64,000 bases of DNA from an uncultured Planctomycetaceae bacterium. GTDB lineage: Bacteria > Planctomycetota > Planctomycetia > Isosphaerales > Isosphaeraceae. The stretch is taken from NCBI GenBank assembly GCA_963833985.1, contig CAWIAD010000002.1:6112001-6176000 (forward strand), read 5' to 3'. Within the stretch, counting starts at the first letter, position 1. Each line of letters begins with the position of its first letter. The position numbers are program-made. Positions 42,001-48,000 of this stretch are shown here, one piece after another.

Positions 42001-45000
42001 CCTCCTGGGCTTCTTTGAGGCCGGGCAGTGGCCCTGTGCGCTGGCGGCCGCACAACGCCTGCTGCCCCGTGACCGGCGGCCTCTGGGCAATAGCATTCTC
42101 CAGAGCGGTGCATCGCTGGGTGCCATCATCACGCCGCCCCTGGTGCTTCTGCTGAACCACGGCGGCCCGGGCGCCTGGCGTCTTCCCTTCCAGGTCGTGG
42201 GGGCGGCAGGCTTGGCCTGGATCGTCCTCTGGCTTCTGGTCATTCGCCCCCGCGATCTGGAGATCGCCGGCGAGCCTGAGCCTGCCGGGCCAGGCCGCAC
42301 GGAACTGCCGGCCCAGGCCGCGCCCAGCGAGCGCATTCCCGTCGCACGGTTCCTTGCCCTGGTGGTCGTGGTCATCACCATCAACCTCTGCTGGCAGTAC
42401 TTCCGCGCCTGGATGCCGATGATGCTGGAGACGCAATACGGCTACAGCAAGACCCGGACGCAGAGCTTCAGCTCGCTGTACTACCTGGCCGCGGGCATTG
42501 GCTGCCTGCTGGCGGGCCTGGCCGTCAAGTGGTTGACAGGCAATGGCTGGCCGGTGCACCGGGCGCGAATGGCCGCATTCGCGTTCTGTGTGCTGCTGAC
42601 CGCCTCCAGTACGCTCATGGTGCTGCTGCCGTCTTCCTGGGGGCTTCTGGTGATCTTGCTGCTTGTGGGCTTTGGTTCGCTCGGGCAATTCCCGCCGTAC
42701 TACGCCTTCACGCAAGAGCTGTCGGTGCGGCAGATGGGCAATATCACCGGCCTGCTCAGCTTCATGACCTGGACGTCCACTGCGCTGGTGCAGGGGCTGA
42801 TAGGCCGCTGGATCGACCGCACCGGCTCCTACGCCGCGGTGACCTGCCTGGCCGGCCTGGTGCCGATGCTGGGATTGCTGGCCTTGCTGATCCTGTGGAA
42901 TCAGGGTCGAAAACCACAGAGAGTGTCAGGAACAGGGTGTTGAGCCGGATCTCCAGGAGCATCCTCGGAGTGTGAACAGCTCATCGTGTGGCACGCCACC
43001 AGGACCGTTCGACTCACGTTCAGCGGCGGCGGACGATCATGCCGTAATGGTCAGGTCCATCGTCTTGCCGGGCGGTCGCGGTACGCTGCCAGACCGGCGC
43101 CGATGGCCCCAGGTCGGATAAGCTTCTCACGCCAGCACGAACCTGCTGGGCCGACAGGCAATAGACATCGAACGTTGCGGCATCATCTCCTGCACTGGCT
43201 CCTGCGCTGTCTCCGCTGCCCAGCACCACGCGGTGACGCGGACTGAGGTAATAGCGTGCGGCCTCCACCTCGTCACGGGGAAACCGCGAGTCGCTGGGGT
43301 GAATCGCAATGGTCGCATTTCCCTGCGTTTCCTGGCTCAGCCACTGCCCGAGCGCCCTCCAGTCGGCCTTGACCACAGGGCTGTTGTTGCTTGCCTCGAT
43401 CGCCGCGATCGAGAGGCAGAATGCCCCGAGCGCGAGAGCCCAGCGCAAGGGTCCGGGCAGCATGCACAGACCGTGGGCCAGCAAGAGCAGATAGGCGGGG
43501 GCAATGAAGAGATGATAACGACCTGGCCCGAAGATCGGCTGGCGGAGCCAGGATTCCACGAACATGAGGACGGGAGGCACCACCAGCCAGCACAGCAGGA
43601 TCCCGCTTTCCACGGGCTGGCTCAGTCGCGGACGACGACCCTGCGTGGTGAACAGCCCCGCGGCGATGACCAGGATGCACGCCAGCAACACGAGGCTGTT
43701 GCCGCCGATGTACTCGATCGGTACGGCCAGCAGTACGCGCAGCGAGTACCGCGGGAGCGGATAATCGGTCCCGTGGTCGAGATAGCGCGGCAGCCATGGT
43801 GCGATCGCCAGCAAGACGCCGGCCAGGATGACCAGCCACGAGCGGAACCCGAGCGCGAGTGAGCGGCGGACGAGCAAGTATGCGGCAATGTGCGCCGCGA
43901 CCATGAAGAGGCCAACCGGGTGGCTGTACACAAGCGCCGTCAGCATCAGACCGTAGGCGATCCTCAGCGGGATGGACTCCGTACGCCGGAACTCCAGGAA
44001 CAGCAGCCACGACAGGCAGGCGACGAGCACCAGCCAGGCGTACATGCGCGCTTCCTGTGCGTGGTAGACCAGGGGCGGGCAAACGGCCGCGAGCCAGGCG
44101 GCCCAGCGCCCCGCCTGATCGTTCCAGAGGCGCCGGCCAAGCTGATAGACGGCCAGCACGGTGCCGATTCCGCAGACGGCGCTGAACGATCGTCCGGCCG
44201 TCTCCGAGTCGCCGAAGAGCTTGACCCAGCCCTGAAGAACCAGCGGATGAAGCGGCGCGCGGGTGCCGTCGATCTGGCCAAGCAGGCCGATCAGCGCGCG
44301 GGGACCGGCCGTCCGCGCCAGCCGCATGGTGACCACCTCGTCATACCAGAAGCTGTACTGGCCCAGCCCGCGCACGCGGAGCCAGACGGCGGTGAAGAGA
44401 ATCAGCAGGAGGTGTGCCGCGATGCCAAAGCGGCAGGTGCCTGCGACTGAACTTCCGAGGCCCGGAGCGTCTTCCTGGCGATCGACGGCAGTCCGCCGCG
44501 GTCCTCGCCAGGGCGGGCTCATCGTGCCGGGCCCAGCTTTTGCAGCAATTGGCTCTGGCGTTCGACCGAACGCTCCACCTCGCCGCGGATCGTCGAGCAG
44601 ACCAGCGTGCAGAGCTGCTCGACCAGGGGGTCGTCGAGACGGTAGTACACCTGCAACCCCTCCTTCCGCCGGCGCACCAAGCCCGAGTCGGCCAGGAGCT
44701 TGAGATGCTTGGAAACGTTGGCCTGCCCGCGTCCCGTTTCCGTGACGACCTGCCCTACGCTCTTCTCGCCCTCCATGAGCGTACGGAGGATCGCCAGCCG
44801 CGTCGGATCGGCCAGCATCTGAAACTTGGTCGCGATCAGGTCCAGCAGGTCGTCGGGGAGGAGTGGAGTCATTGTGTTGACTTTATAGCCCTTCGATTAT
44901 ATAACTAAAGAAGGCAGTACCTTATTGTAACCGCCTGGGACTGAGGTGCAAGGGCCTTGGAACGGAAGAAATCGATGTCCGAAATCTTGCTGATGGTCGG

Positions 45001-48000
45001 CTTCGTGGCCGTCTGGATTGTGCTCAATCGCTGGATATTGCCGAGGATGGGAGTGGCCACCTGAATGAGCGGGAGCTGCGCGGTGTCACCGCGCCAGGAG
45101 ACCGACTCGAGGCGTTCGCCCGCCTTTGCCGAGCCGCGGAGCAAGACGGCGAGCGGGGTGGACTCGGAGAAACCGTACTGAGCTCAGCGGGTTTCTCGCT
45201 GGCGGCTGTCGGGGCTGGCCGCATCTCTGGCCATGAGATGAAAGTCGATCACCAGCGGCAAGTGGTCGGAGGCATCGCGCGCCAGCCGCGAGTGGGCGAT
45301 CCGGACATGGCGAAATCTCCAGCCCCCGCGGGCGAACGCCTTGTCGAGGGCGGTCATCGGAAAGTACGCCGGAAACGACAGGAAGCGTGACCGCGGAGCG
45401 GTTAACTGGCTGAAGCCGCGGCGGGCGAAGAGCCCATCCGCCAGCGTATTGCGCCAGTCGTTGAAATCTCCGACGATCAGCGTGGGCAGGTGAGCGGCCT
45501 GGCGGAAGAGATGGTGTTCCATGAGATGGAGCACCTGCCAGTGCCGTTCCCGCTCGGCCAGGCCAAGGTGCCAGTGGACCAGGTGGAATGGCCCCTCTGG
45601 GCTGTTGACCACGGCAAGCTGAGCGCCGCGGGCTTTCCGCCGCTCGTGCCTGAGCGAGACCTGGTGATGCGACTGGAAGGGCCAGCGCGACAGGACCAGG
45701 TTGCCGTAGCCGCCATCCCTGAGCTTGACGTTGAGCTGATACATGTGAGCCGCGGCGTGAAACGCCTCGACAAGCCGGCGCGGCTGGTCGTCGTGCCGCG
45801 TCCGCGACACGTGCCGGTCCACCTCCTGGAGGCAAATGAGGTCCGGGTTCTGGTCCTCGATGACCTGGATGATCCGCTCCAGACGATAGCGCCGGTCCCG
45901 GCCGCCGATCCCCTTGTGGATGTTGTAGCTCAGCAGTCTCATGGTCGCGCGTCGTGCGGCTCCTGCGGCGAGCGTGCGCTCTCTCCCTGGGTCCGCGGGA
46001 CGCTCGCGAGTTTCACGTAATCTTCGAGGTGGTCGCACTTTCCGTTGACCGCCTCGTGCCGGGCCGTGCCCCCCGCATCCCGCTCCACGGGCTGGTCCAG
46101 CCGGGCGTCAGCATGAGTGTGAGTGACGGTGCGGCCGCTCCGGACGGCCCGGATTCCGGACACAACCAGCCAGTGATGGACCGCCCGATAAGCGAACCAG
46201 TAGCCGATCAGGTTCGGGCCGGGCAAGGGCCAGAGCAACGCCAGCGCCACCGGGGCGATGATGGCATTGTAGCTCAGCGCGACGACATGAGCACGCCCGC
46301 GCCGGCGCAGATAATCGCTCCAGAGGCTACGGACCTCTTCAACCGGCCGCGTGGTCGGGTGCTTCAGATCGATCCGCGTGGCCGATCGCAAACGCCGCAG
46401 CATCGGCTCGTCCGCACGGGTCAGTGAATGCATCCAGTCCCAACCTCGCCTCATCCATCCCATTGCTCCGCTTCGAGCATGGTGGACGTCATTCCACCAA
46501 TGCTCCCAGCGCCGGAGCAGTTTATCCCGCAGGGATGTGGGCGCAGCACGCGCGTCATCGGCAGCCTCGTCGGCGACCGCCTCGCACTCGTCTGCGTAAA
46601 AAAAAACGCGCCGGTCGTCCGCCAGAAGCAAGTAGATCGTCACGTGAAAATCCGTTTCTGGTCGCATTCAAGGGGAAGTGCCGTTACGGGACCGGGCGCT
46701 GGCATGGGAGGTCTCATCTCGGCCACAATTTTGTCTTGAACCCGCCATGAAACTGCCCTGAACTGGAAGCCACATATCGCGGGGCCCCTTTCCATAGGAC
46801 GAGCAAGACGGCCCTTGCCTCTCCGAAACTGGCGATGAATCCGATGCTCCCGTAGCTCGAGGATTTGCACGTCCCGGGCCGGATGGGAGGGCGCCGCGGT
46901 CCGGCCAGGCCTCGCTTTTTTGGGCATTGACTCATTCCGGGAACGTCTCCTTCCGATGGTAAAACAAAGAAAATGGAGAATCAGGGGATCACCCGGCGCA
47001 GATTTCTCGCCCGCAGCCGATGAGAAAACGACCGCGGGTGATGATTCCTGGTTTGGAATCGGGCTCGGGCCAGTGTTCCAGAACGCACCCGCGCTGGCGG
47101 CGGGAAAAGGAGTTCTTGCCCATGACTGGGGGCGTGCAGCGAACTTCCCGGCAGCGGGAGTCATCACGGGTCTCCGCGCGAAGAATGAACCCGATGCACC
47201 GGGCCGGCACCAGACCCGCGCTGGAATGCCTGGAATCGCGCCAGCTCTTATCGCTTTACACGGGCTTCAGCCACGTCCGCAACGTTCCTACGCCTTACGG
47301 GGTGTATTCACTCCAGGTGCAGGGGCCGGGCATCCTCAAGACCTCGCCGGCCGGCGGCGGGGCGTTCGATGTGAAGGTGCTGGGGACAACCGAGGCATCG
47401 ACGCTCACGATCTCACAGGTGCGCCCGCGGTTTCACGTGCCCAACGGTCCCATGACCATCCGCAACCTCACCATCGGCTCCGGGCAGATTGGCAGCATCC
47501 TGGCCGGCAGCGTGGAGCTGGCCGGGGCCATGACACCGCTCAGCGGCAGCGTCGGCAGCCTGGAACTCGGCGCCCTCGGACCCGCCGCGCAGATTGACGT
47601 GCACGGCAGCGTCAGCACCTTCGACGTCGGCTCCGTGAACCTGGGCCCTGGCGGGCACGTCCTCATCGCCGGCGATGTGAATTCGGCCTTCCAGAGCCTG
47701 GGCCAGAGCGCCGCGGCCACCGCACTGACCATCTCGAGCATGAACCTCAACGGCGGCCAGTTCATCATCGGCCGCGACTCGCTGGAACCGATCAGCATCG
47801 CCGGCGACTTCACCCTCTCACACAACGGCCTCTTCGCCGTCGGCCGCGATCAGACCGGGACGGTCACGGTGGGCGGTTCGGTGGTCATCGACTCGGGCGG
47901 CCAGATCAGCGTGGGCCGGAACCTGGCGGCCCTGTCCGTGGGCGGCAACATCCAGGTCGATCCCGGTGCCAGCGGCATCGTGGTCGGCGGCGACTTGAGC

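Follow-up and report, generated by a model that had tools for sequence, protein, structure and literature searches.

A predicted single-helix membrane selenoprotein with a U-x4-C motif, encoded divergently from an ArsR regulator in Isosphaeraceae

Organization of the locus

The window, a 64,000-nucleotide stretch of the genome of an uncultured Planctomycetaceae bacterium (Isosphaeraceae in GTDB), contains at 44957-45181 of the plus strand an open reading frame with a TTG start, an internal TGA (45062-64) and a terminal TGA (45179-81). From the TTG, 35 codons precede the first TGA and read-through yields 74 residues, as the genome-wide survey's note had described. We refine the start to ATG 44975, which is more likely than TTG 44957 to initiate translation because relatives have this Met as their first residue, a GGAAG precedes it by 6 nt, and 5 of the 150 protein relatives terminate exactly at the Thr preceding the codon (29-30 residues). 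From this ATG, the frame encodes 68 residues with read-through and 29 if translation terminates at the TGA. The protein consists of one membrane helix, the motif T-U-M-S-G-S-C and a disordered tail. The features of the locus are as follows.

44519..44872, minus strand: divergent ArsR/SmtB repressor of 117 residues (PF01022 and NF033788 above cut-off)
44877..44905, plus strand: sigma70-type promoter of the selenoprotein gene, -35 TTGACT, 17 nt, -10 TATAAC (36 of the 40 loci given)
44884..44901, no strand: probable operator of ArsR, an imperfect palindrome between the -35 and -10 boxes of this promoter
44924..44951, minus strand: probable arsR promoter, -35 TTGCAC (44946-51), 16 nt, -10 TACAAT (44924-29), from 28 aligned intergenic regions
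44964..44968, plus strand: GGAAG, probable ribosome-binding site judged from sequence (aligned relatives are purine-rich)
44975..45181, plus strand: selenoprotein gene, 68 residues (relatives start at the same Met)
44978..45049, plus strand: predicted N-terminal helix, residues 2-25, with membrane span and W-x-L-P motif (AlphaFold, charge distribution)
45062..45064, plus strand: in-frame TGA, almost certainly Sec (U30); the aligned residue is Cys in 129 of the 150 protein relatives and at 12 genomic loci
45077..45079, plus strand: Cys35, partner in U-x4-C (conserved at 65 of the 67 family loci and in 124 of the 129 Cys-form proteins)
45078..45094, plus strand: bacterial SECIS hairpin with a 7-bp stem and GUC loop at 45085-45087 (folding, covariation, frozen synonymous codons)
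45184..46038, minus strand: convergent endonuclease/exonuclease/phosphatase gene, outside the system (this neighbour in 12 close loci only)

The promoter of the selenoprotein gene was recovered from the alignment. A generic promoter/terminator scan of the locus found nothing, and missed this promoter because its last -10 base is C; the family consensus is TATAGT. The symmetrised operator consensus is TATAACC-N4-GGTTATA. In the arsR promoter, the -10 box is well conserved and the -35 box is found mainly in close relatives. The ArsR protein, the genome's only member of its subfamily, features a C-x3-C pair in helix 5, shared by 46 of 54 aligned ArsR neighbours, and no Cys in helices 2-3. A second promoter-operator in the same genome (score 31.8; next site 24.1) lies 184 kb away, near position 5972948 of the contig, and precedes a rhodanese / rhodanese-YgaP / HlyD / AcrB operon, which carries the genome's only close rhodanese-YgaP relative. 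We infer that the common operator places the selenoprotein gene and the rhodanese-RND operon under one regulation. At its own locus the selenoprotein gene has no co-oriented follower, the next gene being convergent, as in 11 close loci.

Decoding of the in-frame TGA

Comparative sequence evidence makes it almost certain that the TGA at 45062-64 is decoded as Sec by SelB-tRNA(Sec) with the help of the downstream hairpin. Cys replaces Sec in most protein relatives, although the search query carried C at this position and was therefore biased toward Cys forms. At the genomic level, 11 loci carry TGC and one TGT, and the codon at the site in the 67 loci of the window's family is TGA in 55, TGC in 10 and TGG in 2. 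The coding frame is conserved on either side of the UGA (codon table of 51 family loci). Downstream, selection acts at the protein level, as Gly+3 is encoded by all four codons and Ser+2 by both codon families, while synonymous codon choice is frozen inside the hairpin stem. The degenerate loci L068 and L071-L073 were excluded from the codon table and the SECIS alignment.

The hairpin (GCGCGGT-GTC-ACCGCGC), reported by the survey as GCGGT-GTC-ACCGC and found again here, agrees with the bSECIS consensus. A loop of 3-9 nt, a stem of 4-16 bp, G in the first two loop positions, a distance of 16-37 nt from UGA and a minimum free energy of at most -7.5 define that consensus (PMC13188914 section 5); the hairpin of the window has a 7-bp stem, a GUC loop 20 nt after the TGA and a free energy of -13 kcal/mol. 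In the alignment, 96% of hairpin positions are paired, vs 18-59% at slid control positions, with 35 double changes (0 of 500 shuffles). A simplified hairpin test was passed by 169 of 199 TGA loci, 4 of 11 TGC loci and 73 of 600 true stops, and the mean z is -1.8 at TGA loci vs -0.15 at TGC loci.

The distribution of the Sec machinery is consistent with these data. The genome analysed possesses selA, selB, selC (tRNA-Sec) and selD, the last itself containing a TGA. Within the window's family, selA is found in 46 of 52 TGA-bearing genomes and has no match in any of the 6 Cys-only genomes; it is also present in 48 of 50 named genomes carrying the TGA form. In the phylum sample, 35 of 37 non-Cys genomes have selA, which is common in the phylum regardless (290 of 401 genomes), and both Cys-form genomes, single-contig and 99% complete, lack it. 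The survey's note had listed G106 as a TGC locus without selA and G067 as near-complete; its genome handles do not correspond to those used here, where G106 carries the TGA form and selA, and G067 is 77% complete.

Only one clear intact exception, G052, breaks the confinement of the UGA form to Sec-decoding genomes. This genome is 99% complete and gives no match to selA, selB or selD, and both the TGA gene and the hairpin are intact in it. Its gene cluster is 87-88% identical to clusters of other genomes, but in the IF2 and EF-Tu regions these genomes share only 74-80% identity with G052; on these comparisons, part of the gene cluster moves sideways between genomes. The other selA-negative TGA genomes are G064, which has selB, two that are 68% and 82% complete, and G020 and G093, in which the gene is decayed (helix and Cys35 lost in the former, invariant residues changed in the latter). 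Scores of 43-51 bits with the Rfam tRNA-Sec model in five selB-negative genomes are taken as other long-arm tRNAs and were given no weight.

The survey's note had raised the concern that the TGA may be a true stop, so that a 29-residue membrane peptide would be followed by a restart at the adjacent ATG, with the hairpin a terminator or a chance structure. ATG indeed follows in 149 of 195 non-redundant TGA loci, and six family genomes without a selA match, including intact G052, retain the TGA. This explanation is scarcely credible, because Cys-form relatives have the same residues after Cys (Met in 98 and Leu in 18 of 129) and 13 of the 195 loci continue with non-start codons (CTC, CTA, GGC, TTT, GCG, GCC). 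Moreover, the locus scan revealed no terminator pattern, the hairpin is decayed where the codon is TGC, and the selA-negative exceptions are weakened by the retained selB, the incomplete assemblies, the decayed genes and the G052 cluster described above.

Family spread and gene neighbourhoods

Matches of the family search at E 0.01 occur in 63 of 121 genomes including that of the window; without it the count is 62 of 120, which reproduces the figure of 62 given by the survey. Of 76 match places, 69 were retrieved, yielding 70 loci, as one place was retrieved twice (L074 repeats L021 and was dropped); 7 of the weakest (E 0.0018-0.009) lie outside the locus set. L075 and L076, considered as members, were rejected as weak matches only, leaving 67 true loci in 58 genomes. 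At least 118 GTDB stretches carry the TGA form as well, and they represent many phyla, including Desulfobacterota, Acidobacteriota and Planctomycetota. The cultured, Sec-positive Geomobilimonas luticola and Pelotalea chapellei are among the carriers. The family thus occurs in Isosphaeraceae, as the survey's note held, and is not restricted to them.

No Pfam or NCBIfam model scored better than E 0.025 in a scan of 105 members, extending the survey's finding of no NCBIfam match. The protein is not recognisable among the 119 bacterial selenoprotein families in Table 1 of PMC13188914 (2026), the CDD/PANTHER entries of which (thioredoxin-like, Fe-S and BtuF folds) were set aside by name only; Haft and Tolstoy 2025 and BSepDB Table S2 were not covered. 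The proposal of a new selenoprotein family is supported: on sequence grounds, the gene belongs to an unnamed, unlisted family of small membrane selenoproteins found in several phyla. Its core, a single-helix membrane selenoprotein with T-U-x-x-x-x-C, held on every test run. A sequence search of the PDB (best E 0.17), a fold search of the predicted model against the PDB (no match) and the ESM Atlas (one unnamed cluster at 0.88) are uninformative for a single helix.

The AlphaFold model contains a helix at residues 2-25, with pLDDT values of 95 and 91 in its first two blocks that fall to 65 or less beyond residue 30, and a pTM of 0.38. Net charge on the N side is at most 0 in 172 of 178 members, and two or more K/R follow the helix in 165. 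These charges predict an N-out, C-in topology, which would place U30 and C35 in a short loop on the cytoplasmic side. Residues W14, L17, W20, L22, P23, G26 and T29 are nearly invariant, and 15-140 residues (median 27; 38 here) follow the Sec. Three proteins (P0118, P0156 and L092, one in TGA form) are fused to a thioredoxin with W-C-x-P-C; fusions are undercounted, as only 7999 candidates were scored when longer forms were sought, with one fusion recovered.

Sulfur-handling genes adjoin 41 of the 67 family loci, and include rhodanese domains (32), DsrE (15), TauE (11), Mo oxidoreductases (7) and SQR-like proteins (6). ArsR genes adjoin 44 family loci, 36 of them divergently. Outside the window's family (80 named loci), ArsR is found at 10, redoxin at 11 and sulfur genes at 15, while 53 have none of these three kinds of neighbour within 3 kb. 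Hence the ArsR linkage proposed by the survey stands for the window's family and not for the protein family as a whole. CoA-disulfide reductase-rhodanese, YeeE-type and DUF302 genes are also neighbours outside the window's family. The counts are raw and have no chance baseline, and those for the window's family overstate the association, because its loci are related by descent and part of the cluster is passed sideways; MBL counts were set aside, as the MBL profile includes rhodanese domains. In the genome analysed, three queries (one a fragment) gave no DsrE, TauE or SQR match.

Relation to known systems and predicted function

Like the bacterial selenoproteins listed in PMC13188914, this family combines an in-frame UGA, Cys homologs, a bSECIS, Sec machinery and a nearby second Cys. 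The motifs listed there include UxxxxU (TsoB) and GUxSG (YeeE/YedE), and none is U-x4-C on a single-helix microprotein. The Tso operon with TsoR (TsoA/B/C/X/Y, Table 1 of PMC13188914) is similar in that selenoprotein genes adjoin ArsR and rhodanese-like domains; however, the ArsR of the window scores 44.8 bits vs a cut-off of 115 with the TsoR model NF045707, and the Tso models do not match the small protein. YgaP-like TM domains (PF11127, formerly DUF2892) are also small, with a near-membrane Cys, a G-[IV]-x-T-like end and ArsR/rhodanese neighbourhoods, but they have two helices, with Cys-Pro after the second. Homology to PF11127 was rejected (a probability of 4.6% with hhalign; hmmsearch of 21 sequences gave E 0.06 at best), and none of the 105 members matches it.

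Persulfide-sensing ArsR regulons (SqrR/BigR/HlyU cluster 4; PMC10054925) likewise feature adjoining rhodaneses and sulfur transporters or oxidoreductases, and an operator over the promoter. In contrast to cluster 4 sensors, the Cys pair of which lies in helices 2 and 5, the ArsR of the window has both in helix 5 and scores 53 bits with the BigR model (cut-off 155); rhodanese and sulfur-transporter neighbours are shared.

The eukaryotic SELENOK and SELENOS, as described in PMC9344019, are also small, with one helix, a cytosolic Sec, a low-complexity tail and no CxxU/UxxC. The single helix and the predicted cytosolic C-terminal part are found here; Sec near the C-terminus is not, since SELENOK has Sec third from the C-terminus, whereas here it adjoins the membrane. 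A Pfam scan of 105 members and a PDB sequence search revealed no sequence relation, and the likeness is an analogy of layout only.

The small protein probably takes part in reactive-sulfur handling on the inner side of the membrane. SelB-tRNA(Sec) almost certainly reads UGA30 as Sec via the hairpin, which would produce a single-pass inner-membrane protein, N out and C in, followed by a variable disordered tail. In the window's family its gene would come first in a transcript, and here would make it up alone; this transcript would be under repression by the divergent ArsR, the helix-5 Cys pair of which probably senses reactive sulfur. At the membrane surface the selenolate may accept either sulfane sulfur or an oxidising equivalent; a U30-C35 selenenylsulfide would form, or sulfur would be passed to rhodanese, DsrE or exporter partners, and thioredoxin would re-reduce U30/C35. 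We give about even chances to a membrane-tethered U-x4-C redox or sulfane-sulfur relay recycled by thioredoxin, and to the whole chain of steps. A redox role is suggested by the thioredoxin fusions, the sulfur-handling neighbours and the second operator before the rhodanese-YgaP operon. Against the relay, U-x4-C is not a thioredoxin-type spacing, the model is uncertain around the motif, and the fusions are rare; against persulfide sensing, known persulfide sensors are defined by a helix-2 Cys (PMC10054925 section 5), which is absent from this ArsR.

Alternatively, U30/C35 of the same selenoprotein might be a binding site for soft metals or metalloids (Cu, Hg, As, Ni), handing them on to an exporter or buffering them for it, with ArsR sensing the metal concerned. 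Metal sensing is common among ArsR/SmtB proteins, and in atypical As(III) sensors helix 5 provides every ligand (PMC10054925 section 5). AcrB-type RND genes adjoin 7 of the 67 family loci and lie behind the second operator, and P-type ATPase, cation-efflux, ArsP-HMA, ZnuA, NikR and FeoB genes are neighbours in single or few named loci. We regard metal binding as unlikely: sulfur-transfer genes outnumber metal genes, neither arsenate reductase nor arsenite exporter is among the recurrent neighbour clusters scanned, helix 5 of ArsR has just two conserved Cys, and redox chemistry fits the thioredoxin fusions better.

It is likewise unlikely that the selenoprotein acts as a redox-sensitive accessory or signalling peptide, docking on a larger membrane protein, as AcrZ docks on AcrB, or feeding a regulator. 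The near-invariant residues form a conserved surface beyond anchor needs, several Desulfobacterales loci have genes for an ECF sigma factor and a Cys/His-rich anti-sigma directly downstream, and histidine kinases (9) and sigma54 regulators (9) are often found nearby. Yet no partner is universal (9 of the 147 long-flank loci have AcrB, and 8 of the 80 named ones an ECF sigma factor), and a stress-induced effector would likewise show varied adjoining regulators. A selenium-sensing leader, in which read-through of UGA30 would report Se supply and tune downstream genes while the peptide mattered little, is very improbable: the gene is often first past the promoter, before DsrE, rhodanese and TauE genes, but here and in 11 close loci the next gene is convergent, and residue conservation, membrane helix, Cys forms and thioredoxin fusions favour a working protein.

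Returning to the sulfur relay, we tentatively suggest a broader picture, which is possible rather than probable: a bacterial counterpart in layout of SELENOK/SELENOS, catching and releasing sulfane sulfur at a juxtamembrane U-x4-C with thioredoxin recycling, common in phyla of anaerobes and of soil bacteria, concealed in databases as a 29-residue fragment and controlled in Isosphaeraceae by an undescribed reactive-sulfur sensor, an ArsR with a helix-5 Cys pair.

As new bacterial selenoprotein families are described regularly, the decoding is unsurprising, and the interest lies in layout, breadth and regulon. The family is a widespread addition to the bacterial selenoproteome, with a layout (single helix plus U-x4-C within about 45-95 residues) absent from the 2026 inventory, and ties selenium to persulfide-handling gene clusters. 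Gene callers truncate its members to 29 residues or overlook them. Close relatives with Sec or Cys forms, and one mobile cluster present in Sec-negative hosts as TGA, TGC and TGG, constitute natural experiments, and the locus offers an operator together with an ArsR subfamily that bears C-x3-C in helix 5, the inducer of which is directly testable.

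The small gene and its product

An open frame at 44957-45181 of the window (plus strand) contains a single internal TGA at 45062-64 and closes with a TGA at 45179-81. The genome-wide survey's note had read this frame through the internal TGA from the gene caller's TTG; the read-through stands, but ATG 44975 is preferred as the start, because relatives share that methionine, because GGAAG is found 6 nt upstream, and because 5 of 150 protein relatives are products of 29-30 aa, which terminate at the Thr preceding the U codon. Translation from this ATG yields MSEILLMVGFVAVWIVLNRWILPRMGVAT-U-MSGSC followed by a 33-residue polar tail, for a total of 68 aa. 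The gene and its neighbours are as follows.

44975-45181, plus strand: small gene, predicted membrane selenoprotein
44519-44872, divergent from the small gene: ArsR gene
from 45184, convergent with the small gene: endonuclease/phosphatase gene

In the AlphaFold model, a single confident helix spans residues 2-25, and the remainder is of low confidence. The most hydrophobic 17-residue window has a mean Kyte-Doolittle value of 2.15 across 178 non-redundant members (minimum 1.31), and their tail beyond U has a median length of 27 residues. The net charge ahead of the hydrophobic window is zero or negative in 172 members, and at least two K/R residues follow it in 165. According to the positive-inside rule, the K/R-rich flank of a membrane helix is the cytoplasmic side; this charge distribution therefore suggests that U30 and C35 are cytoplasmic. 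Near-invariant residues are W14, L17, W20, L22, P23, G26, T29, U/C30, G33 and C35. In three members, the protein runs on into a thioredoxin bearing a W-C-x-P-C motif: the Cys forms P0118 and P0156, and the TGA form at locus L092. In the latter, the fusion to a full thioredoxin (W-C-G-P-C) is in frame, and ArsR, HlyD and AcrB genes follow.

Evidence for selenocysteine decoding

At the U position, the best 150 of 181 relatives carry Cys (129), Trp (7), Gly, Ser or Leu (2 each), Arg (1) or Phe (1); five end there and one was not parsed. The Trp and Gly relatives may represent TGA translated by gene callers under other codes. A hairpin with a 7-bp stem and a GUC loop follows the window TGA at 20 nt (-13 kcal/mol), and agrees with the consensus in section 5 of PMC13188914. 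Across 51 family TGA loci, the stem is paired in 96% of cells, compared with 18-59% for slid-partner controls, and four stem pairs show double changes (35 cells); none of 500 shuffles reached this pairing and covariation. One double change also alters a residue, giving Arg or His at +10. Synonymous choice is frozen within the stem (GCG 44/47, GTG 35/35, CCG 46/50) and free immediately upstream of it. Of 199 TGA loci (including 4 duplicates), 169 passed a simple in-house test (stem of at least 5 bp, G-led loop, loop 14-30 nt downstream), as did 4 of 11 loci with TGC and, in the source genome, 73 of 600 genuine TGA stops; mean folding z values were -1.8, -0.15 and 0.0, respectively. Among the matches listed, the position of the hairpin is constant across phyla, and its sequences are wholly different.

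In the source genome, which is 96% complete, selA, selB and selD score above cut-offs, and a tRNA-Sec is also present. Of 58 family genomes, which are kin and not independent, 46 combine the TGA form with selA and 6 carry TGA without a selA match; the Cys form alone occurs in no genome with selA and in 6 without. A selA search on 50 of the at least 118 loci retrieved with a TGA-requiring pattern was positive for 48 genomes; of the remaining two, one carries selB. In the phylum sample, selA is present in 35 of 39 carriers (background, 290 of 401 genomes), and both Cys-form carriers, single-contig genomes 99% complete, are devoid of it.

The earlier selenoprotein claim is thus backed by Cys in the relatives, the covarying hairpin and the co-occurrence with Sec machinery. 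The TGA almost certainly encodes selenocysteine, and the small protein is almost certainly a real selenoprotein; judging from sequence comparisons, we are nearly sure that the protein has a single helix, is decoded with Sec and conserves a U-x4-C motif. The survey's worry that the TGA is a stop followed by a restart, based on the ATG that comes next (149 of 195 non-redundant TGA loci), is opposed by the Cys forms, in which Met (98/129) or Leu (18/129) follows the Cys, and by 13 of the 195 loci that continue with CTC, CTA, GGC, TTT, GCG or GCC; a true stop is extremely improbable.

The selD gene of the source genome (G000) carries an in-frame TGA of its own. Directly ahead of it (contig C2, selD at 4294585-4295517, minus strand) lies a small ORF with C-S-L-TGA and an open frame, which we take to be SelW/Rdx-like; it is likely a second unannotated selenoprotein. 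In family f2, selA was found in just 1 of 20 genomes, mostly 99-100% complete, against 290 of 401 phylum-wide; use of Sec appears to be widespread across the phylum and to have disappeared from f2.

Distribution, probable mobility and novelty

Matches at E 0.01 were obtained in 63 of 121 family genomes, source genome included. Of 76 match places, 69 were examined as loci, and these yielded 67 true member loci, distributed over 58 genomes (55 TGA, 10 TGC, 2 TGG). The protein is widespread in Isosphaeraceae, as noted earlier, but is not confined there, and the family is broader than described. The 181 relatives were retrieved at E 0.001 from 1.84 billion representative proteins. A 105-member profile identified 642 proteins at 90% clustering, and all names listed among the best 120 of these are 'hypothetical protein'. 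The DNA pattern, which fixed TGA, a hydrophobic next codon and Cys at +5 and left helix, start and hairpin free, matched at least 118 GTDB stretches. Among the 80 with organism names are Desulfobacterales, Geobacterales, Syntrophales, other deltaproteobacteria, Acidobacteriota and Planctomycetota, with single or few records from Spirochaetes, Gemmatimonadetes, Obscuribacterales and Akkermansiaceae. At least 40 of 401 phylum-sample genomes matched, a lower bound because 14 candidates per genome were scored; the codon was located in 28 of 29 other loci of this sample (26 TGA, 1 TGC, 1 TGT). A TGA form adjoining a CoA-disulfide reductase-rhodanese gene occurs in a record labelled Flavobacterium (L154), a MAG label that may be wrong.

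The survey had rightly remarked that TGA is retained in some genomes with no selA match. Of the six family genomes concerned, G064 has selB; G034 and G096 reach a completeness of 68% and 82%; in G020, the helix and Cys35 are missing from the copy; and in G093, the TGA copy is altered at invariant residues. G052 is a true exception: it is 99% complete, has no selA, selB or selD match, and its gene and hairpin are intact. Over 6-7 kb, G093 and G094 have clusters sharing 87-88% identity with that of G052, compared with 74-80% for their IF2 and EF-Tu regions; this difference points to recent sideways transfer of the cluster. In these Sec-negative hosts the codon is TGA (G052), TGC with the hairpin still present (G094) or TGG (G093), where the frame closes ahead of any start. 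The same cluster in G050, which is selA-positive, has TGA. This is the pattern expected if TGA requires Sec machinery.

Sulfur gene clusters of this type (L256, at G052 C1 ~30800-38200; L257; L074; L029) encode a Mo oxidoreductase, a YgaP-like protein, ArsR, the small protein, DsrE, rhodanese and TauE. At 87-95% identity across three genera, far over the housekeeping level, the cluster appears to be a recently mobile island. The YgaP-like gene at L243 contains an in-frame TAG immediately after its Cys-Pro motif, probably a sequence error, since selA of that genome is split too.

The absence of an NCBIfam hit holds: among 105 members scanned against Pfam and NCBIfam release 20, none matched better than E 0.025. 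Sequence and fold searches of the PDB gave no match. The family is unrecognisable among the 119 bacterial selenoprotein families in Table 1 of PMC13188914. Table 3 of the deep-Sep report (PMC12013277) lists nine new families; for the three hypothetical ones it names NCBIfam models, and these do not match the small protein. BSepDB (PMC13326102) is limited to known families in its searches. SELENOK and SELENOS share the layout but, as described in PMC9344019, carry Sec at the C-terminal end, unlike the small protein. YgaP-like TM domains occupy the same gene neighbourhood and have no sequence relation to it. No description was found in the literature searched, which left out most subscription papers, and the family is apparently undescribed so far.

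Neighbours, regulation and possible function

An ArsR gene lies within the extracted flanks (mostly 1.5-3 kb) of 44 of 67 family loci, divergently in 36, but near only 10 of the 80 named loci outside the family; the ArsR linkage noted earlier holds in Isosphaeraceae and is looser elsewhere. By raw counts, 41 family loci have a sulfur gene nearby (rhodanese domains 32, DsrE 15, TauE 11, Mo oxidoreductase 7 and SQR-like 6 among the neighbours), and AcrB adjoins 7. The named loci have a sulfur gene in 15 cases, a redoxin domain in 11 (including the one thioredoxin fusion) and an ECF sigma factor in 8, and 53 have neither ArsR nor sulfur nor redoxin neighbours. In Desulfobacterales (L103, L111, L127, L148, L152), genes for an ECF sigma factor and a Cys/His-rich anti-sigma lie immediately downstream, possibly forming a thiol-stress unit with the small gene.

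ArsR neighbours feature a C-x3-C motif in helix 5 (46 of 54 aligned) and no Cys in helices 2-3. According to section 5 of PMC10054925, known persulfide sensors have Cys in helices 2 and 5 and canonical As sensors in helix 3; in contrast, the Cys pair of the window ArsR is in helix 5. Its subfamily (an invariant L-C-x-x-V-C in helix 5, no other conserved Cys) also occurs at two loci of Acidobacteriota (L093, L143).

In 36 of the 40 loci used, the intergenic promoter TTGACT-17-TATAGT points toward the small gene. Its spacer includes a palindrome, TATAACC-N4-GGTTATA, a putative operator of which the search pattern fixed just the last four bases. In the source genome, the site in front of the small gene scores 40.9; the runner-up reaches 31.8, and the one after that 24.1.

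G000 C2 5972948, minus strand: second promoter-operator site, preceding rhodanese-YgaP, rhodanese, HlyD and AcrB genes

This operon (C2 5967657-5972948; L225:7658-12772, minus strand) has no ArsR gene called alongside, and the window ArsR is the sole member of its subfamily in the genome. Within this genome, only the operon rhodanese closely resembles the type adjoining the small gene in relatives. With this rhodanese and the second site, it looks as if the usual flanking partners lie 184 kb away here, apparently under the same operator. Weaker promoter-profile matches occur at C2 2408124 (+), C1 1764828 (-), C2 6568577 (+) and C2 1234919 (+); in three of them a 30-nt stretch is nearly the same and may mark where a repeated element ends.

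We propose that the divergent ArsR would repress the small gene and reactive sulfur would induce it. With the motif on the cytoplasmic side, the selenolate would attack a persulfide or oxidant at the membrane surface, C35 would resolve it, and thioredoxin would reset the protein. To this whole chain, including the membrane-surface redox or sulfane-sulfur relay, we give about an even chance. That the U30/C35 protein instead binds a metal or metalloid for export is unlikely, a role as an accessory or signalling subunit is rather doubtful, and a Se-sensing leader is very improbable.

Elsewhere in the window, a 627-aa ORF at 49199-51082 is putatively IS transposase-like, as judged by reading alone.
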